From the NCBI GenBank assembly GCA_005400705.1, contig GCA_005400705.1_4079.1: 64,000 bases of DNA, one strand, 5' to 3'. This DNA comes from Escherichia coli. Lineage in GTDB: Bacteria > Pseudomonadota > Gammaproteobacteria > Enterobacterales > Enterobacteriaceae. Below, one piece after another: positions 3,204 through 63,309 of the stretch. The notes below the pieces were generated by a model. It saw nothing but the letters and a program-made list of their open reading frames with translations. It was not told the DNA's origin and did no database searches. The position numbers and the translations under genes are program-made. The stretch's first letter is position 1; each line of letters opens with the position of its first letter.

Positions 3204-3755
3204 ATGATAGACCAAATTAAAATCCTTACAAAGCAAATCACTGATTTTCTTTCTGATAAAGATGGATTTAATACAGAAGTAAAAATGCACGGTGTTAGTG
3301 TTGATGTAATTGCACCAAATGGTAATGTAACAAGTTACGACATGTATGAATTACTTCTTTATACTCTAGCAGTACGTAAACTAGGTAGTGATATTGAACT
3401 CAACATCAATACTGATGAAAGTGGAAATAAAATTTTTGCAATCAACACCAGTGCTAAATTCGATATCAGTACTGAAATTAAAAAAATAAATGAAAGTTTT
3501 ATTGGCTTTAAGCATGAATCAATTCAAAGTGTTTTTATTGGAAAGCAAACTTCTAATAGTGAATGCCCATATTGTGTAATGACTTTATATAAAGATGGAA
3601 ACTGGATGCGTCAAGATTTAGTATTTGCTGAACTTCTGTATGCATTTACACATGAACTTAAAATCGAATTGGACGATAGTGTTTATTGCTTTAAGAAAAT
3701 TCGCAATATAACTAAAGATATACAAACCCAACTTAAAGAATTAAATGATAAATAA
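3204..3755 (+). CDS. hypothetical protein
   Basis: 183 aa ORF with SD AAGGAAA. Confidence 0.55.
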   Translation: MIDQIKILTKQITDFLSDKDGFNTEVKMHGVSVDVIAPNGNVTSYDMYELLLYTLAVRKLGSDIELNINTDESGNKIFAINTSAKFDISTEIKKINESFIGFKHESIQSVFIGKQTSNSECPYCVMTLYKDGNWMRQDLVFAELLYAFTHELKIELDDSVYCFKKIRNITKDIQTQLKELNDK

Positions 3756-3871
3756 ATATACCAGAAATGGTTAACATATCATGTTACTTTCCTCCCTTAC
3801 ATAATAATGATGCGTTATTATATTTTCATTTTGTTCTTATTCCCCTTTTGGTACAAAATCATTTTAGTACT

Positions 3872-3895
3872 GCCCCGTTCTTCGGGGCATTTTTA
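3872..3895 (+). terminator. intrinsic terminator
   Basis: GCCCCG-TTCT-TCGGGGC hairpin followed by ATTTTTATT; lies inside the 5' part of track ORF 3767-4312, so that ORF start is probably too far upstream. Confidence 0.55.
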
Positions 3896-3916
3896 TTATC
3901 TAAAATTCGAGTATAT

Positions 3917-4312
3917 ATGAAAAATAATATTGGAACTTCAATAATTAAACCACTTTCTTATTACCTTGAAAAATTTAGAAGCACAAATGGTAATAAATTT
4001 AATAATATATTTCAGTTCTCTCATAAAGAATATATTACAATTGATCATTTTTCAAAGAAACTAATGTATGTAAATGATAATATTAATATTATTAAATTAT
4101 CATTCGATATTGAGTTAGATAAATTAACATTTACTGAATACATTAATAAAAAAACTTCTTTTTTATGTCAATACAATAGGAAAGTATATAGTAATATTTC
4201 TATGTATCTAAATGATGAATATCACTTTCAACAATCTACAATAGAAGAAGTATTATTCAGTACTGAAGAATTAAAAGAACTATATTACTGGTATAATTAT
4301 TTTACATCTTGA
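3917..4312 (+). CDS. hypothetical protein, EExFFQxS-motif paralog family
   Basis: In-frame ATG downstream of the terminator; motif NDEYHFQQSTIEEV; no obvious SD. Confidence 0.5.
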   Translation: MKNNIGTSIIKPLSYYLEKFRSTNGNKFNNIFQFSHKEYITIDHFSKKLMYVNDNINIIKLSFDIELDKLTFTEYINKKTSFLCQYNRKVYSNISMYLNDEYHFQQSTIEEVLFSTEELKELYYWYNYFTS

Positions 4313-4367: not shown

Positions 4368-4778
4368 ATGAGTTTAGATTTACACAATGAAATAAAATAT
4401 TTTTTAGATTTGAACATATCAGAATTGAACCACCACGTCAATCATATGACTAGTACTGTATGGTGGTCTAATGAACAAGACGACCCAATTATCCAACTAA
4501 GTGATGAATCGTCAATTATGCGATTTTATAAGATTAATTATAAAAAGAACATCAAGATCACATATGTACCATACAAAAACATACTACTAGTCGAAACACT
4601 TAATCCAAGTTCTTTATTAAAAATCACCGATTTAGATACATTACAAACAAGTGAATCTTTATTCCAACGTTCATTAGTTGATGATCTTGGTGGTATTACT
4701 TTTGAAGATATATTACAATTCAAGAAGATGTATAGTGAATTGTTAGAGATTAAAAACACTTTAGTAATGAGGAATTGA
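4368..4778 (+). CDS. hypothetical protein, EExFFQxS-motif paralog family
   Basis: SD GAGGA; motif SESLFQRSLVDDLGGITFEDI. Confidence 0.6.
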   Translation: MSLDLHNEIKYFLDLNISELNHHVNHMTSTVWWSNEQDDPIIQLSDESSIMRFYKINYKKNIKITYVPYKNILLVETLNPSSLLKITDLDTLQTSESLFQRSLVDDLGGITFEDILQFKKMYSELLEIKNTLVMRN

Positions 4779-4779
4779 T

Positions 4780-5184
4780 ATGGTAAGTTTACTAGATATT
4801 GACAATACCAGTTTAGTGCTGGTGAAAAAAGGTTTAATTCCCAATTCTACAAAAATTGATTATGCTGTTATTGAAACAAATATGGGAAATATCTGGTATG
4901 ATTCAGAAAGTGATATTGTGATTAGCTGTGTAGACAGTGATCGTTCTGAATGTTGTAGAGTCGGGCATGACGGACAATTTGTTTTTGAATTTCGTTATTG
5001 GAAGGACTCAAAATTTCACCAAGAACTGGTTGCATTGTCAAATGAACTGTATACAGAAGAAACTTTCTTCATGGAAAGTACTATTAATAATGTTGGTTCA
5101 GTAACATATGAGCACTATAAAAAAGTATATGCACTATTCAGAGAAGTTATGAAAATTATCAGAACTGCTGAAGGTAACGAATAA
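4780..5184 (+). CDS. hypothetical protein, EExFFQxS-motif paralog family
   Basis: SD GAGGAA; motif TEETFFMESTINNVGSVT. Confidence 0.6.
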   Translation: MVSLLDIDNTSLVLVKKGLIPNSTKIDYAVIETNMGNIWYDSESDIVISCVDSDRSECCRVGHDGQFVFEFRYWKDSKFHQELVALSNELYTEETFFMESTINNVGSVTYEHYKKVYALFREVMKIIRTAEGNE

Positions 5185-5185
5185 C

Positions 5186-5563
5186 ATGACTACTATATAT
5201 GATATTTTGGGTGTTCTGAGTAAAAATATAGATGATGATTTTGTTATTGTTCAAGATACTAGAAATACATTTCAACTACCATTAGGTTCACCAGATAGGT
5301 TAATTTTTAATAGATACTCAAATGAACTAACTTACATCCATGATGGGATTGCAATTGTATCAGTTTCTATAAACGACTATACAATACGATATGTATATGA
5401 CTTCAACAATTATTGTACAAGAATCCACAGTATTGATATTTCCGAAGAGGAACTATTCCAATTGTCAGTGATTGAGAAAAATGTAATAGGAATTACAGAA
5501 ATTAATATTGTTAAAAAAGCATTAAACTATACGAATATAAGAATTAATGGTGGGTGCAGATGA
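5186..5563 (+). CDS. hypothetical protein, EExFFQxS-motif paralog family
   Basis: Motif SEEELFQLSVIEKNVIGITEI. Confidence 0.55.
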   Translation: MTTIYDILGVLSKNIDDDFVIVQDTRNTFQLPLGSPDRLIFNRYSNELTYIHDGIAIVSVSINDYTIRYVYDFNNYCTRIHSIDISEEELFQLSVIEKNVIGITEINIVKKALNYTNIRINGGCR

Positions 5564-6015
5564 ATGTTGACGAAATAAAAAATCATTTTGAAATTGCAAT
5601 GTCATGTGAATTTGACACACAACGTGTTCATGACCCGAAAGAACATATACGCATTTGTTGTGAATTGTCAGATGATTGTAATATTTTTATTGGAAAAACC
5701 TATGACATGATCGATCTTTCATGTATAGATCCATTGGAAAGAAAAACAAAATATTTATATCTGTACAACACAACATCAGATACGATTGCAATACAACTAA
5801 TATCAACCACAACATCCCAAAGTTATTATAACATAACTGAGGTTAGTAGTTTATCGTTAACCGAAGAAGGATTCTTTCAACAATCGCTTATTCGTGAAAT
5901 TGGTGTTAGTTATGATGAGTTAAATGTATTAGTAGATTGTTTCGAAAAATTGAGTACTTTTGTATTATCCCTTTTTAATATACAGTCGCAAAATCCAATG
6001 GTGGTGAAATGCTAA
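5554..6015 (+). CDS. hypothetical protein, EExFFQxS-motif paralog family
   Basis: Motif TEEGFFQQSLIREIGVSYDEL. Confidence 0.6.
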   Translation: MQMNVDEIKNHFEIAMSCEFDTQRVHDPKEHIRICCELSDDCNIFIGKTYDMIDLSCIDPLERKTKYLYLYNTTSDTIAIQLISTTTSQSYYNITEVSSLSLTEEGFFQQSLIREIGVSYDELNVLVDCFEKLSTFVLSLFNIQSQNPMVVKC

Positions 6016-6449
6016 ATCCAAGTAAATTTCTCCACTTACTTTCGATAACATCAATACCGGATCTTACCAGTGAAACTAATGAATATCGTGAAGCTGGGGT
6101 GGTGTCTATGGAACTCGATACATTTGACCACAAATGCTATGTGACATATGACCCACCGCGTTATGGTAAAGAACATTCTTCTTTTATTTTTGTATTCGTA
6201 TACACTGTATATGATAATACAACACTTGATGATGTTTGTATTGACACTTACGAAATTTGTGATAATATCATAACTGATGACAACAATAACTCATTTGATA
6301 TGTCACTATATAACACAGAAGAATCGTTGTTTCAACTTAGTACTGTTATTGATGCACCATCATTAGAAGATATAAAACAATTTCAAGAACATCTTGACGC
6401 AGTTCGTGAGATGTTCTATAATCATTATCCAGAAGTAGAGTTCAATTAA
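6009..6449 (+). CDS. hypothetical protein, EExFFQxS-motif paralog family
   Basis: Motif TEESLFQLSTVIDAPSLEDI. Confidence 0.6.
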   Translation: MLNPSKFLHLLSITSIPDLTSETNEYREAGVVSMELDTFDHKCYVTYDPPRYGKEHSSFIFVFVYTVYDNTTLDDVCIDTYEICDNIITDDNNNSFDMSLYNTEESLFQLSTVIDAPSLEDIKQFQEHLDAVREMFYNHYPEVEFN

Positions 6450-6463
6450 CTAAAGGTAATAAG

Positions 6464-6724
6464 ATGACTAAAGTAGTTCGTAAACGCCACATGATGAACA
6501 TGGATGAATTTCGTACATTTGACAAATATCGTACTATGTTTCGTATGCTTTCACAGGGCCGTCCAATCGTCATTGTAACAGAGAATTACATGTCACCTGA
6601 GATTATGTTTGGTAATTATGAAAAGGTCTTCATGTTGTACGTGAAGCGTGGATTACTTACAATCAAGACATTAGCTGAAGCAACTGATGAAGATATGGAT
6701 GGTGATAATACCTTTACCATGTGA
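6464..6724 (+). CDS. hypothetical protein
   Basis: 86 aa ORF with SD AAGGTAA. Confidence 0.5.
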   Translation: MTKVVRKRHMMNMDEFRTFDKYRTMFRMLSQGRPIVIVTENYMSPEIMFGNYEKVFMLYVKRGLLTIKTLAEATDEDMDGDNTFTM

Positions 6725-6802
6725 GGAAATATATGTCTGAAAAGCCAAAAGAACCATTAGATCGTGATGATGATTTTTATGACGAACGATATGGAGATGA
6801 TG

Positions 6803-7054
6803 ATGAGTGAACATAGTGCTGTGCTTAAAAAGATTTTAAAGGAACTTGATGGTGAGTTTAATGTCACAGAAGAAGAATATCAGCATTGGAAGAAAGGTTT
6901 TGAACAACTAACCGAGTATGATAAAGTGTTCAATATGATTGGTGTAATTAGCCAGTACTTACTTGGTGGAGGACGTGCAAGTGCTTCAATTCTGGCATCT
7001 GCAATCATCTGTACATCACGATGGTGTGATGAAAAAAGTTTGGAAGATTTCTAA
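6803..7054 (+). CDS. hypothetical protein
   Basis: Track ORF 6764-7054; the ATG at 6803 follows GGAG at a good spacing, exact start uncertain. Confidence 0.4.
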   Translation: MSEHSAVLKKILKELDGEFNVTEEEYQHWKKGFEQLTEYDKVFNMIGVISQYLLGGGRASASILASAIICTSRWCDEKSLEDF

Positions 7055-7069
7055 ATAAGATGCTATAAT
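7040..7069 (+). promoter_or_regulatory. sigma70-like promoter upstream of methyltransferase gene
   Basis: TTGGAA - 18 nt - TATAAT. Confidence 0.4.
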
Positions 7070-7106
7070 ATATCAGAGTACCTTAACAATATAAAAAGGA
7101 TTTTAT

Positions 7107-8987
7107 ATGAAACCTATCCGAGTACTATCTCTTTTTAATGGAATGAGTGTAGGATACATGGCATTAAAAGATGCTGGTATCCCTGTTGAAAAATATTATT
7201 CATCCGAAATTGACAAATTTGCTATAGCTGAATCCCAAGCTAACTTCCCCGATATAATCCAATTGGGTGATGTAACTAGATGGAGAGAATGGGATATTGA
7301 ATGGGATAAGATAGATCTACTGATGGGTGGTTTTCCATGCTTCCCAGCAGGAACTATGATAATGACAAATAAAGGTCATAAAGATATAAAAGATATAAAA
7401 ATTGGTGATATGGTTCTTACACACACTGGACAGTACCAAAAAGTATTGAGTACTGGTGTTAAAAAGGCTCCCACTCGTATTATTACAGGTCAAGGTCACC
7501 TTCCAATTGAGTGTACCGATAATCATCCATTTTGGAGTAGGGAACGTCTAGCCAATAAATGGAATAATCAACGCCGAAGATATGATTCTGTGTTTTCTGA
7601 ACCGCAATGGGTAAATGCTATAGATCTTACTAAACAAAGTTATATTTGTAATGTTAAAAATATTACACATAATACAGTAAGTGATAAAGATGAAAAATAT
7701 TGGTATTTTGTTGGTCGTTTTATGGGTGATGGATGTGCTAGTGTATCTAATAACAAATACAGTATTACTATTGTAGATTCATTAGATAAAGTTGATGAAT
7801 TGAAAAAATGTTTTGATGATTTTGGATACAAATACACATTAGCTATTAAAGATAATCATGTAAGATGTGATATATATAGCAAAAAGCTTTATGATGAATT
7901 AATATGTATTGGGCATAAATCACAAAACAAATGTTTACCACCTGAAATATTCAATGAAACTATCAATAACAAAGAAGCATTTATTAAAGGATACATGGAT
8001 GCAGATGGTTGTGAGGATAAACACAATAAAAAATACAAATTTACCACCACAAGTTATAAAATAGTTCTTGGTATGCAACAGTTAATCTTAGATACTTATC
8101 AACGTCATTGTACTATTAGTCAAACTGTTCCAAAAACAAAAAAATATATAAAAAATAAGTTGGTTAATCAGCTTCCGTATTGGAATGTTCATTTTAGCTA
8201 TAATAAAATTAAAAGAGATGATGTAATATATGATGAAATTTATATATGGAATCGTGGTGTAAAAAGTAATGTACCAACCGGAGAATGGAAAACCGTTTAC
8301 AATATTGAAGTTGCAGTAGATAACACATATACGGCGAACAATATTGTAGTTCATAACTGCCAAGCGTGGTCAGTTGCAGGTAAACAGGGTGGAATAAATG
8401 ATCCTCGTGGTATGTTATTCCATACAATGGTTGATATTTACCAGCACATAAAAAGTCTCAATCCAGACTTGAAAGTACTGTTCGAGAATGTTAAAATGAA
8501 AGAAGATTTCAAGCAATACATTAATAGTGTTCTTGAGATGACACCAGTACTGATAAATTCCCAGCATTATACGCCTCACTTCAGGCAGAGATATTACTGG
8601 TACAGTACTGATAAACTTTTTATACCACCTGCATTATCAAATGCACCTAAACTTCAAGATATTATTGAAGATGGTTGGTACACTGACAGAACCGCTTCGT
8701 ACTGTATAGATGCTAACTATTTTAAGGGTGGTGATTGTAACCAGTACTTTAATAAATCAAGAAGACAAATTGTTTTCAAAGAACCTGATATCGATAGGGA
8801 TTTCCTTATTGAACATGGTAAGCGAAATGTGGACTATCGTCATTTAACAGTACAAGAGTGTTGCATGTTGCAAGGAATTGATGTAAACTACTTCAAAGTT
8901 AGTAGTTCAACACAAGCATACAAAATGCTTGGGAATGGATGGACTATGCCAGTTATATCACACTTACTACGAGATATATTCTTTTGA
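7107..8987 (+). CDS. DNA (cytosine-5)-methyltransferase, intein-containing precursor
   Basis: C5-MTase motif I FNGMSVG, split motif IV GGFP / CQAWSVAG, motif VI ENV (VLFENVKM); a 340 aa insertion lies between them. Confidence 0.8.
   Translation: MKPIRVLSLFNGMSVGYMALKDAGIPVEKYYSSEIDKFAIAESQANFPDIIQLGDVTRWREWDIEWDKIDLLMGGFPCFPAGTMIMTNKGHKDIKDIKIGDMVLTHTGQYQKVLSTGVKKAPTRIITGQGHLPIECTDNHPFWSRERLANKWNNQRRRYDSVFSEPQWVNAIDLTKQSYICNVKNITHNTVSDKDEKYWYFVGRFMGDGCASVSNNKYSITIVDSLDKVDELKKCFDDFGYKYTLAIKDNHVRCDIYSKKLYDELICIGHKSQNKCLPPEIFNETINNKEAFIKGYMDADGCEDKHNKKYKFTTTSYKIVLGMQQLILDTYQRHCTISQTVPKTKKYIKNKLVNQLPYWNVHFSYNKIKRDDVIYDEIYIWNRGVKSNVPTGEWKTVYNIEVAVDNTYTANNIVVHNCQAWSVAGKQGGINDPRGMLFHTMVDIYQHIKSLNPDLKVLFENVKMKEDFKQYINSVLEMTPVLINSQHYTPHFRQRYYWYSTDKLFIPPALSNAPKLQDIIEDGWYTDRTASYCIDANYFKGGDCNQYFNKSRRQIVFKEPDIDRDFLIEHGKRNVDYRHLTVQECCMLQGIDVNYFKVSSSTQAYKMLGNGWTMPVISHLLRDIFF
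7338..8357 (+). other. intein with LAGLIDADG homing-endonuclease domain, inside the methyltransferase gene
   Basis: Begins with Cys (CFPAGT...), ends ...VVHN followed by Cys; two LAGLIDADG-type motifs (YFVGRFMGDGCAS, FIKGYMDADGCED); the +1 residue is the PCQ catalytic Cys. Confidence 0.75.
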
Positions 8988-9469
8988 ACATAAACAAACA
9001 CCAAACTTATATAAAACGTGCAGAAAGTTTCAAACGTCTGGCTGTAAAATCTGAATTAGAATTTAATTTGTATTATCCTAATATTGGTGATGAGGTATTT
9101 TATTGCTCTCATTCAAAGAATGGAACTTTACTTAAATCGGGTAAAGGAACTATTGTTGATATGACCGCAAATTTCAGAGGTAAACTTAATGTAATGTACA
9201 AAGTACAAGATTCAAGTACTGAGTGTATTCATGAAGTGATGCATAACATACCTGCATATCCAAAAGATTTTGTTCAGCTAATATCTCGAAGGGAGAAACC
9301 TATGTTTTATTGTGGTTATGACAAATTAACCAAACAAATTATTCCTAATACTATGGGAAAATTTAAAAGTGATGTGAAATCTGAACTTGAAAAGAAATTT
9401 GGCACGTCATGGGAAACTGAAAACGAGTTTATCGAAATTCGTTTAATTGAAATTACTATACTTGAATAA
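8939..9469 (+). CDS. hypothetical protein (start uncertain)
   Basis: Track ORF overlaps the 3' end of the methyltransferase gene; true start likely further downstream. Confidence 0.35.
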   Translation: MDYASYITLTTRYILLNINKHQTYIKRAESFKRLAVKSELEFNLYYPNIGDEVFYCSHSKNGTLLKSGKGTIVDMTANFRGKLNVMYKVQDSSTECIHEVMHNIPAYPKDFVQLISRREKPMFYCGYDKLTKQIIPNTMGKFKSDVKSELEKKFGTSWETENEFIEIRLIEITILE

Positions 9470-9474
9470 TTACA

Positions 9475-9499
9475 AATCCACGCATTGCGTGGATTTTTC
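9475..9499 (+). terminator. intrinsic terminator
   Basis: ATCCACGCA / TGCGTGGAT hairpin followed by TTTTTCAT. Confidence 0.55.
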
Positions 9500-9511
9500 A
9501 TAGGTGCATAT

Positions 9512-10027
9512 ATGCCAATTCCTTATGTTAAAATTATTAATAATATTCTCGATTCATGGGAAGATGTTATTACTGGTAAAAAGCAACCATCACCAGTACA
9601 TGCTTTATCTGGGAAACTTCAATTCAGAATGTCAAACCAAACTGAAACATTTAATAATCATGATATTTGCATTACATTAAAAACACCTATCAGTATTGTA
9701 ATTAAAAAAAATAAAGATGATGAATTGACATTATCTATTGGTCGTGATAAAATCATTTTAAGTAATTTGTCTGAAGAAGAATTCTTTCAAAGAAGTACTA
9801 TTATCGATATGAAAGATTTCACATATGAATCATTGGTTGAACTCAATACACGTTTTAACGATATTCAGGAACGATTGCGACCAATTCTTCGTATCGAAGA
9901 AGAAGCCTGGATTGAAAGTATTAGGAAGATGCAAGAAATGTTGAAAGAAAATATTAACAATCTGGGTAAAGCTACAATGGAATTTGGTAAAACTTTTAAA
10001 CTGAACTTTTCAAAGGATCGTAAATGA
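9512..10027 (+). CDS. hypothetical protein, EExFFQxS-motif paralog family
   Basis: ATG after the terminator (track ORF starts 9485); motif SEEEFFQRSTIIDM. Confidence 0.55.
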   Translation: MPIPYVKIINNILDSWEDVITGKKQPSPVHALSGKLQFRMSNQTETFNNHDICITLKTPISIVIKKNKDDELTLSIGRDKIILSNLSEEEFFQRSTIIDMKDFTYESLVELNTRFNDIQERLRPILRIEEEAWIESIRKMQEMLKENINNLGKATMEFGKTFKLNFSKDRK

Positions 10028-10479
10028 AAATTGATAATTTGATTCATGTTTTAGGATCTTTACATAAAATATTATCACATCTACATGAGATAAAGAAACT
10101 GGGATTTAACATCTCAAATTCAATTGAAACTACATTTAAATATCAATCAATTACTGGTGATGGTTATTACATAATCGAATATACTTATGAAACCGATCCA
10201 GACTTCTATCCTCTTACGTTGAGAATTTATCCAACAAATCCGAGAGGAATTCACGACATATCATCAATTTCACTTGATCCAGATGGTGAAACGAGTATTG
10301 AATACAATAATGATTCAAAACCAGAATTTTACATTGATGATATTAAAATGATGTTCAACGATGAATATGTGTTCCAGCAAAGTACTGTGCATGATGTTGG
10401 AAGTACTAATGGACAATTTTGGAATACATGTTATTATCATATGATTGAAATTTGTAAATTACTAAAAGGCGATGATTAA
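10024..10479 (+). CDS. hypothetical protein, EExFFQxS-motif paralog family
   Basis: SD AAGGA; motif NDEYVFQQSTVHDVG. Confidence 0.6.
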   Translation: MKIDNLIHVLGSLHKILSHLHEIKKLGFNISNSIETTFKYQSITGDGYYIIEYTYETDPDFYPLTLRIYPTNPRGIHDISSISLDPDGETSIEYNNDSKPEFYIDDIKMMFNDEYVFQQSTVHDVGSTNGQFWNTCYYHMIEICKLLKGDD

Positions 10480-10862
10480 TGAAATACAGCATTGAAGTAC
10501 ATTACACTACAGGGGACACTGAAAATTGTTATGACGTTCTTAATACAATTGATATTCAATGGTCTTCTAAAGAGGAAGCAGTTGCTGCTTTACAGTGCCT
10601 AAAAGAGCATTGGGTGTTTTATATGAAGCAAGATAATTGCTATACTAAAGAACACGAAACTATCGTTGAAAATGCTAAACAAAAAGAGTGGTTTGACCCA
10701 ATATCACCAGAATATTCATTCTTGGTTAAAGTTGGCGATGTGACAGTTCCATTACGAACACCGTGGAACGGCTACTTTGAAACTCTTCATAATGCACGAG
10801 TTGTCGCTGTTGATAATCCTGAGCAAATCGATTTCGATTCATTGGACTGGAAAAAACTATGA
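10479..10862 (+). CDS. hypothetical protein
   Basis: 127 aa ORF, overlapping stop/start with neighbours. Confidence 0.5.
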   Translation: MKYSIEVHYTTGDTENCYDVLNTIDIQWSSKEEAVAALQCLKEHWVFYMKQDNCYTKEHETIVENAKQKEWFDPISPEYSFLVKVGDVTVPLRTPWNGYFETLHNARVVAVDNPEQIDFDSLDWKKL

Positions 10863-11302
10863 CAGTACTGCACCAATTAAAGAAGGTTAAGCATCCAGTT
10901 GTATACGAGGATTGGAAACGACAGAAGTTGATGGGTGATTTTTATTTCCCAAAATCTAAAGTTCTTGCGAATTCAAGATGTACATATTTCAAACATAATG
11001 ATAAAGATACAGTATTTGTTGAAATGGGTTTCAATCCATCAAATACAATGTTCAGTACTAACCAAACATTTTACAAATTTCATATCCAAAAAGATTCATT
11101 TTCTATCATGATTTTAAAACTTTTAGTTGAAGATCTGCTATACCGTGGTGAAAGTGTTCCTTTATCATTAGTGGATATTCCTTATAATAATTTAGAGGAA
11201 ATGTACTTCCAACAGTTGACAGTGCAAGAAAACTTCGGTATGATAGGACTTCAAGAGTTAGAGATGATTAAGCAAATTCGTGATATCTACTTTAAGGAGT
11301 AA
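10859..11302 (+). CDS. hypothetical protein, EExFFQxS-motif paralog family
   Basis: Motif LEEMYFQQLTVQENFG. Confidence 0.55.
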   Translation: MTVLHQLKKVKHPVVYEDWKRQKLMGDFYFPKSKVLANSRCTYFKHNDKDTVFVEMGFNPSNTMFSTNQTFYKFHIQKDSFSIMILKLLVEDLLYRGESVPLSLVDIPYNNLEEMYFQQLTVQENFGMIGLQELEMIKQIRDIYFKE

Positions 11303-17768: not shown

Positions 17769-17945
17769 ATGACACATGAAGAATGGTTAGATGAACTAAA
17801 ATTCAAACATAATCCTTTTGGTTTTGGTATACGCCAAGGTCATTATGATGTGTTAAAAGATAAACAACTTTTCAAATCATTTGTACTTGATGCGGATAGC
17901 AACCACTGGTTCATCTATGAGCTTGCAATTAGAGACAAAAAATAG
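17769..17945 (+). CDS. small protein, MTHEEW family
   Basis: MTHEEWLDELKFKHNPFGFGIRQGHYDVLKD...NHWFIYELAIRDKK; paralog of 18287-18469. Confidence 0.5.
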   Translation: MTHEEWLDELKFKHNPFGFGIRQGHYDVLKDKQLFKSFVLDADSNHWFIYELAIRDKK

Positions 17946-17950
17946 TAAGA

Positions 17951-18049
<99 letters not shown>

Positions 18050-18069
18050 TATAATAAAGGTGATTTAAT

Positions 18070-18285
18070 ATGAAAGTCATTATCAATCCAGCAGGAAACT
18101 TTTTTGGTGAGGTTTTCGGTGCAGACTGTGTTGTGCAAAATTTTCCACGAATTGAAATTGACGGAATTGATGTTCAACAATATGGAAACCTGTACTATGT
18201 AGTTGATGAGACTGGTTCTATTGTTCATGACAGTGCTTTCTTTACAAAAGAAGAGATGAAGCACTTAATTGTACTGGATACATAA
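18070..18285 (+). CDS. hypothetical protein
   Basis: SD AAAGGTGA. Confidence 0.5.
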   Translation: MKVIINPAGNFFGEVFGADCVVQNFPRIEIDGIDVQQYGNLYYVVDETGSIVHDSAFFTKEEMKHLIVLDT

Positions 18286-18286
18286 A

Positions 18287-18469
18287 ATGACACACGAAGA
18301 ATGGATGTCCAAACAGTATAAAGAACATGACTGCTTTGGGAATGGTATTCGTCAGGTACATTATGATATTCTCAAAGATATAAATTTATTCATAAAATAT
18401 GTTTTGGATGAAAATAAACATTGGTTTATATATGAGATTGCATATAGAAACTCAAATAAACAAAAATAA
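18287..18469 (+). CDS. small protein, MTHEEW family
   Basis: Internal ATG of track ORF 18269-18469; MTHEEWMSKQ...HWFIYEIAYR. Confidence 0.5.
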   Translation: MTHEEWMSKQYKEHDCFGNGIRQVHYDILKDINLFIKYVLDENKHWFIYEIAYRNSNKQK

Positions 18470-18483
18470 ATAAGGAATATATT

Positions 18484-18702
18484 ATGGAAACAACGTTATT
18501 TGAAGTTATTCAAGCATTAAAAACTGGTGATGACATTCAAGTATTGCTACATGGTTATCGTTTAAAAGGCACTGTGGTTTTAGTTAATGACACAACGTTA
18601 GTTATTGCCGAAACAAATCCATATGATAGTAATCAAGTTGCTAATATCCATATTGATATTAAAAGCATTATTGGTGTAGGCGTAAATAAAAATCAAGAAT
18701 AA
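18484..18702 (+). CDS. hypothetical protein
   Basis: SD AAGGAA. Confidence 0.5.
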   Translation: METTLFEVIQALKTGDDIQVLLHGYRLKGTVVLVNDTTLVIAETNPYDSNQVANIHIDIKSIIGVGVNKNQE

Positions 18703-18782
18703 CAAATGTTTTTGAAAAAACCAGAAAATGAATGATTTTTTTTTGGGACAACTCAAAAATATATGATATAATAATTAGTACA

Positions 18783-18872
<90 letters not shown>

Positions 18873-18876
18873 ATAT

Positions 18877-18977
<101 letters not shown>

Positions 18978-18979
18978 CC

Positions 18980-19144
18980 ATGACGCATAAAGAATGGATG
19001 AATGACATTAATTTTAGATATGCAGGTTTCGGTAACTGGAGAAAGTATCATTGGGAAATCATGTCAGACCCAGCAGAATACGATAAACTTATAAACCATG
19101 AAGCGTATCCGTGGTTCTTTATTGAAATAATGGTACGAACATGA
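18980..19144 (+). CDS. small protein, MTHEEW family
   Basis: MTHKEWMNDINFRYAGFGNW...; below ORF-track cutoff. Confidence 0.4.
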   Translation: MTHKEWMNDINFRYAGFGNWRKYHWEIMSDPAEYDKLINHEAYPWFFIEIMVRT

Positions 19145-19305
19145 CACATGAAGAGTGGATGAAACGCCAAAAATTAAAGTGGAATCCTTATTATCTCTCG
19201 TTAGAGCCGAGAATGTGGGATGTGATACGTGTTAAATGTATGTACAAATCATTTCTTTGTGATATAATGGATGTTGAAGTTCTGATGCATATTGTGTACA
19301 GATGA
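19141..19305 (+). CDS. small protein, MTHEEW family
   Basis: MTHEEWMKRQKLKWNPYY...; ATGA overlap with previous paralog. Confidence 0.4.
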   Translation: MTHEEWMKRQKLKWNPYYLSLEPRMWDVIRVKCMYKSFLCDIMDVEVLMHIVYR

Positions 19306-19315
19306 TTAAAAAAAG

Positions 19316-19729
<414 letters not shown>

Positions 19730-19786
19730 CTAAATAATTCAGTACCAAGGAGATTAATATGTTTAAAGATGAACGTCCAGATTTGT

Positions 19787-19824
<38 letters not shown>

Positions 19825-19899
19825 GAATTCCACAATCAGACGTATATGGTGTAAGTTACGTCGATGCAATCCAGAACAAGATCTCTGGTACTCTAGGAA

Positions 19900-20109
19900 G
19901 TGGTGAATGTTAACCTAGACGGGTTTGATAATTGGACGATAGGCAATTATTACTTGACTAGCAGGTTTAAACTAGAGGTGATAGTCCTTCACCAAACTGG
20001 AAAACCGGATGGACTTTTATTTAAAAGGGTAAGGCGTGGAAATATGTTTACAGAAGTTGCTTTTAGTAGCCTGTACGCCCCACGTCAAGGTAGCCGAAAG
20101 GCAAGTTAA
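19900..20109 (+). CDS. possible small basic protein, or part of a non-coding transcript
   Basis: 69 aa ORF in a locally GC-richer, structured-looking segment between a promoter and a T8-run terminator; coding status uncertain. Confidence 0.3.
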   Translation: MVNVNLDGFDNWTIGNYYLTSRFKLEVIVLHQTGKPDGLLFKRVRRGNMFTEVAFSSLYAPRQGSRKAS

Positions 20110-20187
20110 AACGGGTGGTTATAAAGCTGAATTAACAGCGGCGTTTAAAAGCGTCACCATCCATTTTTTTTAATTAAAGTTGGTGAT

Positions 20188-20577
<390 letters not shown>

Positions 20578-20602
20578 TATTCAGTACTGATATAATTAAT
20601 TT

Positions 20603-20839
<237 letters not shown>

Positions 20840-20912
20840 CTTTTTAATTTAAAAGTACTTTACTGTAGTGTTTAGTACCGTATAATGTAAACAAAAGGAT
20901 AAAATAAAACTC

Positions 20913-21437
<525 letters not shown>

Positions 21438-21459
21438 TTAAAAAATCAGTACTTTATTA

Positions 21460-21750
<291 letters not shown>

Positions 21751-21751
21751 T

Positions 21752-21844
<93 letters not shown>

Positions 21845-21861
21845 TTCACATGATATAGGGA

Positions 21862-22347
<486 letters not shown>

Positions 22348-22431
22348 AAGAACGAAATGTAGACGGTTGTATTCAGTACTGAATCACATGGGGAGGTTGT
22401 GATTCCCGATTCAGTAGCTTATAAAGCAATT

Positions 22432-22537
<106 letters not shown>

Positions 22538-22556
22538 AGAGGTACTTCGAGTATGC

Positions 22557-22682
<126 letters not shown>

Positions 22683-22684
22683 TA

Positions 22685-22771
<87 letters not shown>

Positions 22772-22826
22772 GACTGCCAAACAGCTTGAAGTACTTTGTA
22801 GTGCTGCACCTATGCCGACACTTGGC

Positions 22827-22936
<110 letters not shown>

Positions 22937-22940
22937 ATCT

Positions 22941-23011
22941 GGTTGATTAGTTAAATGGTATAACACGGATCTTGTAAGTCTGAGTCATTAGTTCGATTCT
23001 AATATTGACCA
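22941..23011 (+). tRNA. tRNA-Thr (anticodon UGU)
   Basis: Acceptor GGTTGAT / ATTGACC (with G-U pairs), D arm GTTA-AATGGTA-TAAC, anticodon loop CTTGTAA, T arm ATTAG-TTCGATT-CTAAT; no encoded CCA. Confidence 0.7.
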
Positions 23012-23076
23012 CAAATATATTCTTAGAAATAACATTTTTCTTGAAAATAAATACTCCATACTATATGGAGAACTAT

Positions 23077-27607: not shown

Positions 27608-27949
27608 ATGAACTTAAGTTCAACAATTCAGTACTTGAGCAGTAACTTCGAGAAAATTATTTCTCGCGGTGGGATGATTGTACACCCAGAAACAGAGGAA
27701 ATGTACATCATTGGATTTGATAAAAAATCTTATGATCAAGTACTTGTAATTTCCAAGTTAGAAAGTTATAATGAAGTTGTTCAGTTTTGCTGTACCGAAT
27801 TTGGTATCTATATTAAAGACGCTGAAACTAATACAATTTCGCATTATTTTTACCACACACTGATGGGTACTAAAGACTTCGGCTTGAAGTTCGATGATTT
27901 AGTACAATGTCACTATATGTTTAAAACCTTCCCAGCTAGTGGGCATTAA
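27608..27949 (+). CDS. hypothetical protein
   Basis: SD AAGGAG. Confidence 0.5.
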   Translation: MNLSSTIQYLSSNFEKIISRGGMIVHPETEEMYIIGFDKKSYDQVLVISKLESYNEVVQFCCTEFGIYIKDAETNTISHYFYHTLMGTKDFGLKFDDLVQCHYMFKTFPASGH

Positions 27950-27962
27950 GGAGTATATCAAT

Positions 27963-28751
27963 ATGAGCAACATTTTCTTCAAAACTATTTCTTTCAAAAA
28001 AGCATCTTACTCCTACGCCTACGTTGATGGTAAAGTGCTTAATATTGTACTGGATGGTGTTGACGTACCAGTTGAATTTAAAACACATGAAGAAGCAGTT
28101 GAAGGTGCTAAAGAATTGAATTCAATTCTTAATGGTGAAGTAAGTCAAAAACAACATGTAAAATCTGATTTAGATGTACTTTTGGAAAAAATCAAAACTG
28201 GTGAAGTATTAGAAATTTTAGACAACTGTAATGAAAAACTTCGTAATGTAGTTAATAATGTTCGTGACCAGATTCAAGAAAAAGCACTAGAGCAAGCATT
28301 CAAACATGTATCCAAGAATGCTGAATCTCGTATTGACGGTATGGTTAAAAATCTTGATGATGTACTATCTCATCTCTTTACTAAAGAATACGAACAAGAA
28401 GTTGAAGAAGAACCAGTAAAAGAAACTAAAAAAGAAAAACGTAGCTTTGGCTCAGGTGATGATGTGTTTGGTTTTACGAATGTCCGAACAAGTGCAGATG
28501 AACCAAAAGAAATTAGTGAGATGCTCATTGGTGACATGACAACTAAGCAGCTTCGTAATGAAATTGACAAGTTTGTAACTAGTTGTATCAAATCAGAACG
28601 TGCACAAAGTATGTTTAAAAGCATTAGTGAGAACTTTGGTCCAGAAGCAACTGAGCAGGCACTAACTGCATTTAAAGAATTGATTTATAATGTAGCCATT
28701 AGCAATCCAGATAAAACACTTGAAGAAGTTCTACGTGACAATTTCAAATAA
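27963..28751 (+). CDS. hypothetical acidic protein
   Basis: ATG after AAGGAG (track ORF 27939-28751); E/K-rich. Confidence 0.5.
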   Translation: MSNIFFKTISFKKASYSYAYVDGKVLNIVLDGVDVPVEFKTHEEAVEGAKELNSILNGEVSQKQHVKSDLDVLLEKIKTGEVLEILDNCNEKLRNVVNNVRDQIQEKALEQAFKHVSKNAESRIDGMVKNLDDVLSHLFTKEYEQEVEEEPVKETKKEKRSFGSGDDVFGFTNVRTSADEPKEISEMLIGDMTTKQLRNEIDKFVTSCIKSERAQSMFKSISENFGPEATEQALTAFKELIYNVAISNPDKTLEEVLRDNFK

Positions 28752-28766
28752 TTAGATAAAATTAAA

Positions 28767-28792
28767 GCCACTACAATGTAGTGGCTTTTTTT
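28767..28792. terminator. bidirectional intrinsic terminator
   Basis: GCCACTA-CAATG-TAGTGGC hairpin flanked by an A-run upstream and a T7 run downstream, between convergent genes. Confidence 0.6.
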
Positions 28793-28793
28793 A

Positions 28794-29948
28794 TTATGCG
28801 TTGTAACCAACTATTACGACTGAGCAGTCAAGCGGTTCTACTACTTTAAGAATTACATTATCATCTTCATCCACTTGTATTTCACTATGAACTACATGAT
28901 TGTCTGAAGAATATAATTGAACTTGTGGTAGTGCTTTACCATGTTCAGTTACTGGAACTGAGATAGAGTACATAGAGTCTTCACTGAGAACCCACTCACT
29001 TAAAGTATATTCTTTATGGAAAGGAGTAGTATGCAGTGTTTTTCCGATTATACTCAAAGAAACAGGTAAATTATCAGTTTGATACACAGTAATATTACCT
29101 TCTGCGTCTACAGAAAGATCTACACCAACTTGATATAAGTCACCACTGTATGCTTGAAGTGCTAAGTACTGTCCACGATCATGAACATCAAATGGAACAA
29201 CCGCAGAAAATACACCTTCCGAAACAGGTTCAAATTGGGATAGAAGAACTGATGTAACAAAATCAATATCCTCACCACTTTCAAGAACATCAAATTCCAC
29301 CACTTTAGTGTTATAATATGGAGAAGTGAGCGTAGCAGTACCTTTCCCTGATTGTGTGATAACATCAACTGGAATTGTAAATGCATCATTAACAAATTGG
29401 GTAGTAAAGTATTCTGTCCCGTCTGGTAATACGATTGTTATTACCATACCGTTAGTATCAATTTCTGAACCAGTGTTGAATAATTTACCACTAATTGAGT
29501 CATTACCAACAAATACTGGTGAAATGAGAATATTATCTATATCACGATCTATAATACCACATTCAGGTGTATACATATGATACAAGGTTTGTGAACTACC
29601 TAAAATTGTTTTATGTAGCATAAATTTATATACAAATCCAGTATCAGTTTCTTGTGGCTCTTCAGAATATCCACGAACAAAGAAACAATTTTTATTAATT
29701 TCACTTAATAGTTGGTCATTAGTTTTATTGTAATTTAATAGATAACCTTTATTATCTTTAGTTGTTATTTGTACTTTACGATATATTATATTAGTTCTTG
29801 GATCAATTAAATCATATAATCTATGGCTTCTTTGGCGATAGATTCTAATATTTTTTAGTCTAGTTCCATCGTTGAGGATTGCACCATCAACAACATAACC
29901 ACATTCACCAAACTTATAGTGTCCAGCCGCAGCAATTGACCTTGACAT
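28794..29948 (-). CDS. large hypothetical protein (384 aa), possibly structural or host-interaction
   Basis: Only long minus-strand ORF in the middle of the plus-strand block; preceded on the minus strand by GGAGGGATAA-ATG. Confidence 0.6.
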   Translation of the reverse strand: MSRSIAAAGHYKFGECGYVVDGAILNDGTRLKNIRIYRQRSHRLYDLIDPRTNIIYRKVQITTKDNKGYLLNYNKTNDQLLSEINKNCFFVRGYSEEPQETDTGFVYKFMLHKTILGSSQTLYHMYTPECGIIDRDIDNILISPVFVGNDSISGKLFNTGSEIDTNGMVITIVLPDGTEYFTTQFVNDAFTIPVDVITQSGKGTATLTSPYYNTKVVEFDVLESGEDIDFVTSVLLSQFEPVSEGVFSAVVPFDVHDRGQYLALQAYSGDLYQVGVDLSVDAEGNITVYQTDNLPVSLSIIGKTLHTTPFHKEYTLSEWVLSEDSMYSISVPVTEHGKALPQVQLYSSDNHVVHSEIQVDEDDNVILKVVEPLDCSVVIVGYNA

Positions 29949-30008
29949 TTATCCCTCCATTGGTATAATTATTATAACGTATTTATTATGCATATCCAAA
30001 AAATGAGC

Positions 30009-30037
30009 TTGACTGGTGTATGATTTGGTGTTATCAT
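30009..30037 (+). promoter_or_regulatory. sigma70-like promoter
   Basis: TTGACT - 17 nt - TATCAT. Confidence 0.45.
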
Positions 30038-34744: not shown

Positions 34745-35710
34745 GTGAAAAAGCTTGATTTAAATACAATTGCCGAAGAAGTTCTGGATGAATGTTTTGC
34801 TAATGAAGAAGTCAACACACTAGAAGCCTTAGATTTCGTTGAAGATAAAGATGAAAATGAAGGTAAAGTACAAAGCAGTTTCAAATATAATATTACACTT
34901 AAGCGACCACCAAATGTTTCCAATGAAGATCTAATTCGTGATATTCAAGCTGGTATCAATGTAAAGAAAAACACTGAACTGTTAGTTCGTTACAATTATG
35001 GACTGATTATTGATGTAGCAAGTAAATGTACTTGTTATATCCCATTTGAAGATAAGATTTCATATGGTGTTGAGGGGTTCATGAGAGCACTAAAAACCTT
35101 TGATCTTAATAAGAATGTGAAGTTCATTACCTATGCTTCTTCTAGTATTTACATGACAGTTTATAACGAAAGTTCTGACGCTAACTATATGGTACACTTC
35201 CCACGTTATATGAGTGTTCATAAGATCAAAGTAAAAAGATTCTGCCAGGAATATATGCGTAAACATGGTGTTCGCCCAACTCCTGAAATAATCTCAGAGG
35301 GTACTGGGATTGAGATTCAGCATGTTAATAATTGTTTGTTATTTCAAAGCGAATACACTTCACTGGATGCACCATTAGACGGTGTTACAGATGGTACACT
35401 AGGTGACATTATTCATTCACCTGCTTCTGATTTTAACCTCAATGTTGATAGTATTCGTGCACCTTTACGTTATGCTATCAATGAACTGACTAACGAATTG
35501 AGTACTAAAGAACGTGAGATTATCCAGCGTGTTCATGGTCTAGGTGAATATGAACCTGAAACGCTTCGTGAGATTGCTGATAATGGTTTTGTTGATGATA
35601 ATGGAAAATATGTTAAATCCCGTTCATCAATACACCGAAAGTACAGTGAAGCTATGCAAAAGCTTAAGAAGCTAGTACTTGCAAAAGGGTACGAATACGA
35701 AGATTTCTAA
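34745..35710 (+). CDS. sigma70-family RNA polymerase sigma factor
   Basis: GTG start after AGGAG; region 2 (EGFMRALKTFDLNKNVKFITYASSSIYMTV) and region 4 helix-turn-helix (LSTKEREIIQRVHGL...ETLREIAD...KSRSSIHRKYSEAMQKLKK). Confidence 0.75.
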   Translation: MKKLDLNTIAEEVLDECFANEEVNTLEALDFVEDKDENEGKVQSSFKYNITLKRPPNVSNEDLIRDIQAGINVKKNTELLVRYNYGLIIDVASKCTCYIPFEDKISYGVEGFMRALKTFDLNKNVKFITYASSSIYMTVYNESSDANYMVHFPRYMSVHKIKVKRFCQEYMRKHGVRPTPEIISEGTGIEIQHVNNCLLFQSEYTSLDAPLDGVTDGTLGDIIHSPASDFNLNVDSIRAPLRYAINELTNELSTKEREIIQRVHGLGEYEPETLREIADNGFVDDNGKYVKSRSSIHRKYSEAMQKLKKLVLAKGYEYEDF

Positions 35711-46909: not shown

Positions 46910-47024
46910 TTTAACTTTGGGACAACCATTCTTATTATGATATAATGTTTTATGTCATTCGATATAAATGACAACGGAACTATAAATATTATAGTAAAAT
47001 TTATCTCTTATAGGAGTTATAAAA

Positions 47025-47408
47025 ATGGTTGATAAATGGAATAAGAAAGATCCATCACATGATGTTGATATTTCTGGTCTAGACAATGCACATAAGCACA
47101 AGTATCTAGATTCACTAGGTCTTCTAAAACCGGACCAAAGTCTTGCACATGATCGTCCATCCCGTGAAAAAGCATTTAGCCTAGAATCACTAGGTCATGA
47201 GCTTAATCGTGTGTTTGAGGATCACCCAATCTATGTACGTGATATTATCGAGAAACTTAAAGTAACTCCTAAAGAGCACTTTAAAGCAACAGTACACTCT
47301 GCATTCCGTGCATTGCATGATTCTCTCAAGAAAACTCACAATCTTCGTAAAATTCATGATGAAATCGTGAATGCAATCGAAAGTGAAAAACATAAGTTCA
47401 AGAAGTAA
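47025..47408 (+). CDS. hypothetical protein (shares YLDSLGLL motif with 47655 gene)
   Basis: SD AGGAG; KYLDSLGLLKPDQ. Confidence 0.5.
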   Translation: MVDKWNKKDPSHDVDISGLDNAHKHKYLDSLGLLKPDQSLAHDRPSREKAFSLESLGHELNRVFEDHPIYVRDIIEKLKVTPKEHFKATVHSAFRALHDSLKKTHNLRKIHDEIVNAIESEKHKFKK

Positions 47409-47624: not shown

Positions 47625-47654
47625 TATACTATAAATATAGTCATAGAGAAAAAA

Positions 47655-48932
47655 ATGAAATCTATGGAGAGAAATCAAATGCCAAGTAATTTTACTGATA
47701 AAAATGGTGGTAACATGGCTGGTCACTCTGATAAATGGAGTGAACGCAACCGCCGTCCAAATAGTTATCAAGCAGGTCAAGGTTCACGTGGGTCACGTAA
47801 TCAAGGAACTGGTCTAGCTGGTAAAGCAAACGCAGAAGCAGGTGAAGTTAAGAGTACTGAGAACATGACTGAGCTAGAAAAGCTACGTTATGTTAATTCA
47901 TTGGGACTTCTTAATGCTACACAAAAACAACGTCTAGCTGATATGGAACGTGAAGAAAAAGAAAAATCTGCTCCTGCTAAAGAAGAACCAAAACAAGAAG
48001 CACCAAAGGCGGTTAACCCTGTCAAAGAACTGTCTGATAAGTTAGGTAAGATTTTTGCTAATAAACCACAACTTATCCAAGGTATTGTGAAAGAATTGCA
48101 ATCTGTACCTAAAGAAGAATTAAAAGTCAAAGCACAAGCTGTACTTGATGCAATGAGTGGAAATACCAGTACTGAACCAACTGAAGTATTCAGTACTATA
48201 ATGCGTGCACTTGAAGGTACGCAACAAGGTGATGTGCCTGCACAAGAGGAAGTAAGTCTTGAAAGCGTACTTAAAACATTTGATAGTATTGGTAAAGAAG
48301 ACCGTGCTAATGCTCAACAAGTTAAGAATGTACTAGCTAAGTTAGAAAACCGTCTGGAAGGTAAAGACGATAAGATTAAATTAGTATCTGATGCAGTTAA
48401 CGATGCACTTAAATCTTACGTACAAGGTGAAAAGAGTCGTTTTGTAACTGCAATGGATGCTGCATTCAATACTATGAAAAAGTATGAAGCTGATCACGGT
48501 GAGAAGGTTACACGAGATGGTTATCTGATGCGTGATGATGAAGAAGGTGCAGTAGAACAGAACGATGTTCATTCAGACGAAGAAATTGATGACATGGAAG
48601 CTGAACTGTCACAAGACCGCCAAATGACTGAAAAATCCCATAACGAACTACAGAAATTAATGCAATGGGTTGCAGATGTTGGTGAAAAAGCTGGTGCTGA
48701 TAAGAAGAGTATAAACCGAAATCTTAGTTGGATTAAAGATAAAGTTGGTAACAACGCTCGTAAACTACAAAAAGCGTGGACTGATGTAGTGAATGGTGCT
48801 GTTGACATTGATGTTGAATCCGGTGAGGCATATGATTATGCATTGACTACACTTGATGACTCTTTCCGTGATTACGAAAATGGAAATGTAACTCCTTGGG
48901 AAAAGGACATCATGAGCAAATACGGTAAATGA
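47655..48932 (+). CDS. large hydrophilic protein (425 aa), hypothetical
   Basis: Gly/Ser/Asn-rich N-terminus, charged helical remainder; contains YVNSLGLLNATQ; exact start among three nearby ATGs uncertain. Confidence 0.55.
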   Translation: MKSMERNQMPSNFTDKNGGNMAGHSDKWSERNRRPNSYQAGQGSRGSRNQGTGLAGKANAEAGEVKSTENMTELEKLRYVNSLGLLNATQKQRLADMEREEKEKSAPAKEEPKQEAPKAVNPVKELSDKLGKIFANKPQLIQGIVKELQSVPKEELKVKAQAVLDAMSGNTSTEPTEVFSTIMRALEGTQQGDVPAQEEVSLESVLKTFDSIGKEDRANAQQVKNVLAKLENRLEGKDDKIKLVSDAVNDALKSYVQGEKSRFVTAMDAAFNTMKKYEADHGEKVTRDGYLMRDDEEGAVEQNDVHSDEEIDDMEAELSQDRQMTEKSHNELQKLMQWVADVGEKAGADKKSINRNLSWIKDKVGNNARKLQKAWTDVVNGAVDIDVESGEAYDYALTTLDDSFRDYENGNVTPWEKDIMSKYGK

Positions 48933-60869: not shown

Positions 60870-60939
60870 ATTTCCTCCTTTATTCATTATACTATATTTA
60901 ATACAAAAAGAAATGCCAGTATCAAGTACTGGCATAATA

Positions 60940-62118: not shown

Positions 62119-62189
62119 ATTTCCCTCCTTTATTCATTATACTATATTTAATACAAATAAGAATGCCAGTATCAAGTACTGGCATTATG

Positions 62190-63299: not shown

Positions 63300-63309
63300 A
63301 ATTCTCTCC

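Follow-up and report, generated by a model that had tools for sequence, protein, structure and literature searches.

The lone opposite-strand gene gp155 of RaK2-like jumbo phages, a probable Ig-domain decoration protein of the virion surface

A single gene that runs against all of its neighbours in the genomes of RaK2-like jumbo phages is probably a self-contained late unit for a protein that decorates the virion surface, with an N-terminal module as its anchor and a string of Ig-like domains directed outward. We analysed it in a 64-kb stretch of DNA (the window), which by sequence is Asteriusvirus jumbo coliphage DNA, being 99.3-99.8% identical to the Asteriusvirus jumbo coliphages 121Q, PBECO4, G17, phAPEC6 and CRJP21. 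The gene corresponds to 121Q gp155, annotated there as “virion structural protein; structural protein, Ig-domain”, and we use that name throughout. It is already annotated and proteomics-confirmed, and the oddity of its orientation is resolved here as an ordinary one. The value added by our study is modest: a shared N-terminal module (N-module) ties gp155 to a 14-kDa virion protein that is apparently abundant, as well as to a family of proteins carrying Ig strings, and the proteins with this module can be named as candidates for decoration densities left unassigned in two cryo-EM studies (121Q and phAPEC6).

The gene and its transcription signals

The gene occupies positions 28,794-29,948 on the minus strand, begins with ATG and comprises 384 codons, for a protein of 384 aa with a computed mass of 42.9 kDa and a pI of 4.6. 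A Shine-Dalgarno sequence GGAGGG (29,953-29,958, minus strand) stands 4 nt from the ATG, so that the initial annotation, which had described a lone minus-strand frame with this ribosome-binding site, is confirmed. The protein is 99% identical to 121Q gp155 and to phAPEC6 gp077, its counterpart in that phage, and CBB_496, GAP32_475 and ENKO_455c are further orthologs. A chance open reading frame was ruled out by full-length homologs at 31-79% identity and by MS peptides of the orthologs. The surroundings had been called uniformly plus-strand, which is correct as far as ~59 kb: over that distance gp155 is the sole minus-strand feature, and the block stops at an array of minus-strand RCC1-like genes that begins at 59,679. 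In the 121Q annotation all CDS and tRNAs from gene 41 to gene 233 (~87 kb) are likewise co-directional save gp155. Other minus-strand frames of at least 100 aa in the plus-strand block, for example 17,929-18,264, which overlaps a tRNA-Gly gene, matched no annotated 121Q gene. Searched against the window with tblastn, the 384-aa protein matched itself alone; it has no paralog within these 64 kb, and the earlier remark that it resembles none of its neighbours holds. All seven tRNA genes of the window lie on the plus strand, clustered at 17,973-23,012 (Gly, Ser x3, Met, Asn, Thr), and one of them, called as tRNA-Ser, has the unusual anticodon ACT. The RCC1-like array (59,679-63,987, minus strand) consists of paralogous ‘DNA condensation’ genes of 418, 392, 369 and 225 aa, a family of which several paralogs are virion-associated in phAPEC6 (PMC7247149).

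Downstream, gp155 converges with a plus-strand gene for a virion protein at 27,939-28,751 (121Q gp154, phAPEC6 gp078c, PHROG 14991). Between the two, and shared by them, stands a hairpin at 28,764-28,788 (11 bp with 5 G-C pairs, loop of 3) that has a T-run on the plus strand and AATTTTAT on the minus strand and that a scan for intrinsic terminators scored in both directions; the bidirectional terminator first placed at 28,767-28,792 was therefore essentially right, and the annotation of phage G17 also gives the hairpin site as a terminator. Terminators of the A-run/hairpin/T-run type follow the gp155 orthologs in 8 of the 8 loci examined in detail (the window, A4, EJP2, fENko-Kae01, GAP32, CBB, fHe-Yen9-04 and XaC1).

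Upstream of the gene, AATAAATA at 29,980-29,987 (minus strand) is a putative T4-type late promoter element, the ATAAATA core of which starts 38 nt upstream of the ATG. Alignment-free inspection located a TAAATA core at -31 to -45 from the ATG in all eight orthologs, within spacers that have otherwise diverged: the element reads AATAAATA in the window, AAATAAATA in GAP32, CBB and Yen9-04, and GGTAAATA in EJP2, fENko-Kae01 and XaC1. In the CBB study, ATAAATA came out of a MEME search as a motif in front of structural genes of CBB and GAP32, and the authors likened it to the T4 late promoter TATAAATA (PMC5259590). Within 1-50 kb of 121Q, 6 of 20 annotated virion genes have [AG]TAAATA at a distance of 15-70 nt upstream, compared with 2 of the 43 other genes (Fisher p = 0.01, in a small test), and of the four sites that match this pattern on the minus strand of the window, only 29,980-29,987 precedes an open reading frame. 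With 33% GC in the genome and a motif that is both short and AT-rich, the element should be considered a putative late promoter in this phage group. Exact copies of TATAAATA at 46,983-46,990 and 47,632-47,639 (plus strand) stand 20-40 nt upstream of two virion genes, 47,025-47,408 (121Q gp199) and 47,655-48,932 (121Q gp201), which by size match phAPEC6 gp037c and gp035c, respectively. It would follow that late genes scattered through this early-looking block each carry a late promoter of their own; the notion that all late genes lie on the opposite strand was rejected, given these two plus-strand virion genes. The convergent virion gene gp154, which lies on the early-gene strand, showed no late-type motif in its upstream sequence.

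The putative late element overlaps a weak sigma70-like candidate that could serve as an alternative promoter (29,971-29,998, minus strand; TGGATA-16-TATAAT, 10 of 12 matches). Facing the other way are two tandem promoters on the plus strand, one of sigma70 type at 30,009-30,037 (TTGACT-17-TGnTATCAT), for the plus-strand gene at 30,065, and the other, with a perfect sigma70 consensus and an extended -10, at 29,942-29,969 (TTGACA-16-TGnTATAAT). GTCAAG, the reverse complement of the TTGAC -35 box at 30,009-30,037, is recognisable in 7 of the 8 orthologous spacers. The -35 box at 29,942-29,969 overlaps the start codon of gp155, and RNA polymerase bound there would cover the Shine-Dalgarno sequence and promoter region of the gene. 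From the late-like element, the opposed sigma70 promoters and the terminators we infer a locus built from a divergent early/late promoter pair and a convergent, shared terminator, the late timing being read from these motifs. Two explanations had been offered for the inversion, separate regulation or recent acquisition, and the first of these is supported by the predicted signals, namely the gene’s own Shine-Dalgarno sequence, late-like element and terminator. Transcription of gp155 would start from the T4-late-type AATAAATA, proceed leftward against the early or middle genes around it and end at the bidirectional terminator, and such a late, leftward unit would account for the orientation in which the gene stands isolated.

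The locus is like T4-type late units in that a TATAAATA-like element stands close upstream, at an apt distance from the ATG and with no -35 box needed, and in that the same class of motif precedes other virion genes. It differs from them in its looser motif, (A/G)TAAATA, and in that the sigma factor encoded in the window is of the sigma70 type rather than gp55-like. The gene for this phage-encoded sigma70-family factor (regions 2, 3 and 4) lies at 34,745-35,710 on the plus strand, ~5 kb from gp155, and in XaC1 a sigma factor gene is likewise found near the gp155 ortholog.

Domain architecture and the N-module family

An AlphaFold2 model built on an alignment of 28 orthologous sequences (mean pLDDT 85) consists of an N-terminal domain followed by three beta-sandwiches, the latter with a pLDDT around 90. 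In the N-module (aa 1-125; 29,574-29,948, minus strand) a conserved arm of low confidence (aa 1-17) is followed by a core that is all-beta (aa 18-125). The Ig-like sandwiches follow on the same strand at aa 138-225 (29,274-29,537), aa 226-305 (29,034-29,273) and aa 306-384 (28,797-29,033); the first two have a pI of about 4.05 and the third, the least conserved domain, one of about 4.5, and in 11 of the 28 orthologs the first is CarboxypepD_reg/prealbumin-like. Charge is thus split along the chain, with a pI of 9.1 for aa 1-135 against 4.0-4.5 for the three Ig-like domains, and mean pairwise identity goes from 0.71 in the arm and 0.58 in the core to 0.45, 0.44 and 0.41 in the Ig string. Two cysteines, C16 and C130, are invariant in all 28 aligned orthologs and are not kept in the wider N-module family; their position at the edges of the low-confidence segments, flanking the arm and the linker, suggests a possible disulfide or metal site.

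The protein matches PHROG 10468 (‘virion structural protein’) over residues 1-383 with an E-value of 1.6e-183, and both this profile match and its conserved syntenic position place it in the PHROG 10468/gp155 ortholog group. Pfam returned nothing above threshold. Foldseek comparison of the whole chain with the PDB retrieved generic tandem Ig-like arrays (Bap, filamin, Ig-CAMs, S-layer proteins and adhesins) and no phage chain among the matches, and a sequence-profile search of the PDB gave a marginal match to the Ig-like domain of Bap and nothing else. The homology and structure search advised at the outset has in this way yielded an ortholog group as well as tandem Ig-like fold matches. For the N-module, PDB searches found no solved structural relative. 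In BFVD its model found two uncharacterised proteins of Atu_ph07, a jumbo phage of Agrobacterium, as well as proteins of uncultured phages, all with weak fold similarity (E about 3e-3 to 5e-3, TM about 0.5); at the level of modelled folds, the module may reach beyond the RaK2-like phages.

An exhaustive HMMER search with the full-length family profile recovered 177 proteins, many of which, with lengths of 102-1859 aa, match at profile positions 1-121 alone, the match being N-terminal in every case. Used by itself, the N-domain had no return in a word-indexed homolog search, apparently owing to a limitation of the index, since exhaustive HMMER did match the N-domain; a search for related loci with six aligned N-domain sequences yielded 3 loci. 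Among annotated phages the module is confined to RaK2-like jumbo phages (70 records). It heads paralogs with 0 to 7 or more Ig-like domains. A Pfam scan of ten of the longer partners found Ig-like domains in nine (Big_2 x5-7, Invasin_D3/Big_1 or HYDIN-like Ig), the tenth being without a Pfam match.

The 121Q paralog that consists of the N-module only is gp471 (125 aa), which corresponds to phAPEC6 gp347 (14.10 kDa). In virion MS, gp347 was detected with 8 peptides and 75.2% coverage, compared with 74.9% for the major capsid protein and 68% for the sheath (PMC7247149), and judged by sequence coverage this protein appears to be highly abundant. CBB_112, a paralog that combines the module with Ig-like sequence, is also MS-positive (PMC5259590). 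Opposite-strand cassettes are formed by gp471, by RaK2 gp039 (212 aa) and by a tandem array of four N-module genes on a 360-kb IMG/VR contig (IMGVR_UViG_2029527005_000005, locus 4648-11148; about 392, 442, 639 and 606 aa), which is inverted relative to its flanks. Upstream of gp471 stands TATAAATA, some 150 nt away from where gene 472 begins, and in the array GGTAAATA is found about 30 nt before two of the genes, those of 442 and 606 aa; hairpin terminators occur at gp471 and near the array genes, the two cassettes for which the sequence was read. Gene 472 of 121Q, immediately upstream of gp471 (record 218107-218238; locus 6870-7001), is a 43-aa frame that encodes a truncated N-module (MGEPIAGQDQFPFTLGGYLVDG...) and appears to be what decay has left of a longer paralog, similar to the ~640-aa proteins that occur in metagenomes.

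Association with virions and site on the particle

Published virion MS covers orthologs of gp155 in three phages. In phAPEC6, gp077 (42.88 kDa) was detected with 10 unique peptides and 37.8% coverage, and gp078c, the counterpart of the convergent neighbour, with 4 peptides (PMC7247149); in CBB, the ortholog CBB_496 was detected with 4 peptides and 17.5% coverage (PMC5259590); and in fENko-Kae01, the proteome of which also lists many non-structural proteins, ENKO_455c bears the flag “identified with LC-MS/MS”. Presence of the gp155 product in purified virion preparations is shown by these published data, which concern the orthologs and not the present isolate, and such MS is evidence of association with the virion, not of position on the particle. 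Virion proteomics, which had been proposed as a check, was accordingly already available for phAPEC6, CBB and fENko-Kae01. The expectation that the product would simply remain a hypothetical protein is outdated, as it is an annotated virion structural protein that has been detected in virions by MS.

We suggest that the N-module, including its conserved, unstructured first ~17 residues, anchors gp155 on a repetitive virion lattice, from which the acidic Ig string would project outward. The lattice would most likely be the capsid, and gp155 could possibly be the protrusion at the hexamer centres of the 121Q and phAPEC6 reconstructions. There the string could make weak contacts with glycans of the host surface or the environment, or keep virions dispersed, in the manner of T4 Hoc and T5 pb10. 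The capsid is favoured because its decoration layers lack a gene assignment and because the N-module-only paralog appears abundant: the low-resolution capsid reconstructions of 121Q and phAPEC6 contain unassigned decoration layers, with an elongated protein, one per MCP, and a protrusion at every hexamer centre, and according to the phAPEC6 authors no decoration density could be tied to a gene.

The gene and its architecture could be as described while the decorated lattice is that of the tail (the sheath rings, the collar or neck, or the point where the ‘hairy’ whiskers attach), with the N-module docked on sheath or neck and the Ig string again outward. We consider this rather unlikely, and yet a serious rival, given the unassigned decorations of phAPEC6 tails, which show rings at two levels as well as the bases of fibres (PMC7247149). 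Several depositors have labelled Big_2-bearing paralogs ‘major tail protein’, and tail proteins often carry Ig-like domains, as seen in PHROG matches; however, the labels appear to be based on Big_2 similarity alone, and the PHROG tail matches span the Big_2 region and not the N-module. GAP32, moreover, keeps the gp155 gene, though the CBB authors suggest that this phage may be whiskerless (PMC5259590). The 75% coverage of the N-module-only paralog would suit a lattice of very high copy number, yet the sheath also reaches 68%.

That the protein has no external structural part at all, and is instead packaged inside the particle or adventitiously co-purified with it, is improbable. Enzymes and DNA-binding proteins do occur in the virion proteomes of jumbo phages, but Pfam, PDB-profile and ortholog searches found no enzymatic or DNA-binding domain in the 384-aa protein, its orthologs were detected in three independent proteomes, and three acidic Ig-like domains, with paralogs that carry up to 7 Big_2, are typical of exposed surface proteins.

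A broader scenario, which builds on the surface-decoration reading and which we put forward as tentative, concerns the N-module family as a whole. The ~120-residue module (‘M-G-K-P-I-A-G ... R-I-x-K-Q-R-S ... F-D-L’) may be an undescribed virion-lattice anchor, independent of the anchors of Hoc and pb10, on which a modular display system of RaK2-like phages is built: gp471/gp347 could be a high-copy capsid decoration and gp155 a fibre at the hexamer centre, while their relatives could swap 1 to 7 or more Ig-like domains as autonomous, opposite-strand late cassettes. If true, a T=28 jumbo capsid would bear a Hoc-like scaffold for display that had evolved independently, with a possible use in phage display.

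The likeness of gp155 to T4 Hoc is considerable. The two proteins are of similar size (384 aa and 376 aa for Hoc), each has one conserved anchor domain and three variable, acidic Ig-like domains, each is a virion protein outside the core, late in Hoc and putatively so in gp155, and in each case some phages have several paralogs with the anchor in common and a differing number of Ig domains. Hoc binds the hexamer centres on T4, where the capsids of 121Q and phAPEC6 show a protrusion, and an adhesive or dispersive function has been proposed for it. However, the anchor of Hoc is C-terminal and alpha/beta, that of gp155 N-terminal and all-beta, and PDB searches gave no sequence or fold match of gp155 to Hoc; a string of about three Ig domains is shared, a homologous C-terminal capsid-binding domain is not. 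Homology was therefore rejected on the position and fold of the anchor, and the relation between the two proteins is analogous, not homologous.

T5 pb10 has an N-terminal capsid-binding domain followed by one or more C-terminal Ig-like domains, the same polarity as gp155, and structure searches found no N-terminal domain of the pb10 fold in gp155. Ig-like domains (Big_2, I-set, FN3) on capsid and tail proteins of tailed phages were reportedly described by Fraser et al. in 2006. The concept of phage Ig-like accessory domains is cited by the CBB authors (PMC5259590). At the level of fold gp155 belongs here, as a virion structural protein with an accessory Ig-like display and with paralogs that carry classical Big_2 repeats; it differs in that its three domains fall below the Pfam thresholds for Big_2, I-set and FN3, and in that domain 1 alone matches CarboxypepD_reg, in some orthologs only. 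It is most aptly grouped with the known Ig-displaying decoration proteins of phages, as one more, non-homologous member. The jumbo phage phiKp24, for which a high-resolution capsid has been published, was set aside as a model for the capsid, being T=27 with an MCP of 597 aa and no decoration proteins, and described in a paper that makes no RaK2-group assignment.

Age of the inverted arrangement

Homologs of the full 384-aa protein are restricted to RaK2-like jumbo phages (30 clusters in a large protein database, 61 annotated phage records), with 31-79% identity outside the species. The loci examined represent the genera Asteriusvirus, Mimasvirus (GAP32, CBB) and Eneladusvirus (fHe-Yen9-04), together with fENko-Kae01 and the Xanthomonas phage XaC1, which have no assigned genus. 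In all eight, and in an IMG/VR contig for which the strand arrangement alone was checked, the gp155 ortholog stands alone on the opposite strand, flanked by genes of the same families (gp156-like and gp154-like), an arrangement that persists down to 31% identity; the gene is present and syntenic across all 61 matching records, including the eight inspected in detail. Its GC content does not differ from the mean of the window (0.333 for both), and none of the local genes has a lower GC3. Since the lone inverted position recurs across genera and GC equals the mean, the orientation is, as far as genome comparison tells, an old and conserved trait, an ancient feature of a putative late cassette and not evidence of horizontal gain.

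The recent acquisition that had been raised alongside separate regulation did not stand: that the gene is a newly gained, moron-like foreign insert in the early-gene block would fit its opposite strand, its dissimilar neighbours and a promoter-like element and terminator of its own, but is very improbable, as three or more named genera, and unclassified phages besides, share the inverted position and the flanking genes at identities as low as 31%, the GC equals the genome mean with GC3 typical or lower, and the homologs are limited to the RaK2-like lineage, so that horizontal gain was rejected on a composition that is not atypical and a distribution that is not patchy among relatives.

In the Asteriusvirus genomes examined no methyltransferase gene lies next to gp155, and in four of the other phages a tRNA/SAM-dependent methyltransferase gene is inserted 3' of the ortholog (GAP32, locus 5149-5691; fHe-Yen9-04, 5146-5685; CBB, 3650-4189; XaC1, 5656-6174). 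In GAP32, CBB and fHe-Yen9-04 this gene separates the gp155 ortholog from the gp154 homolog.
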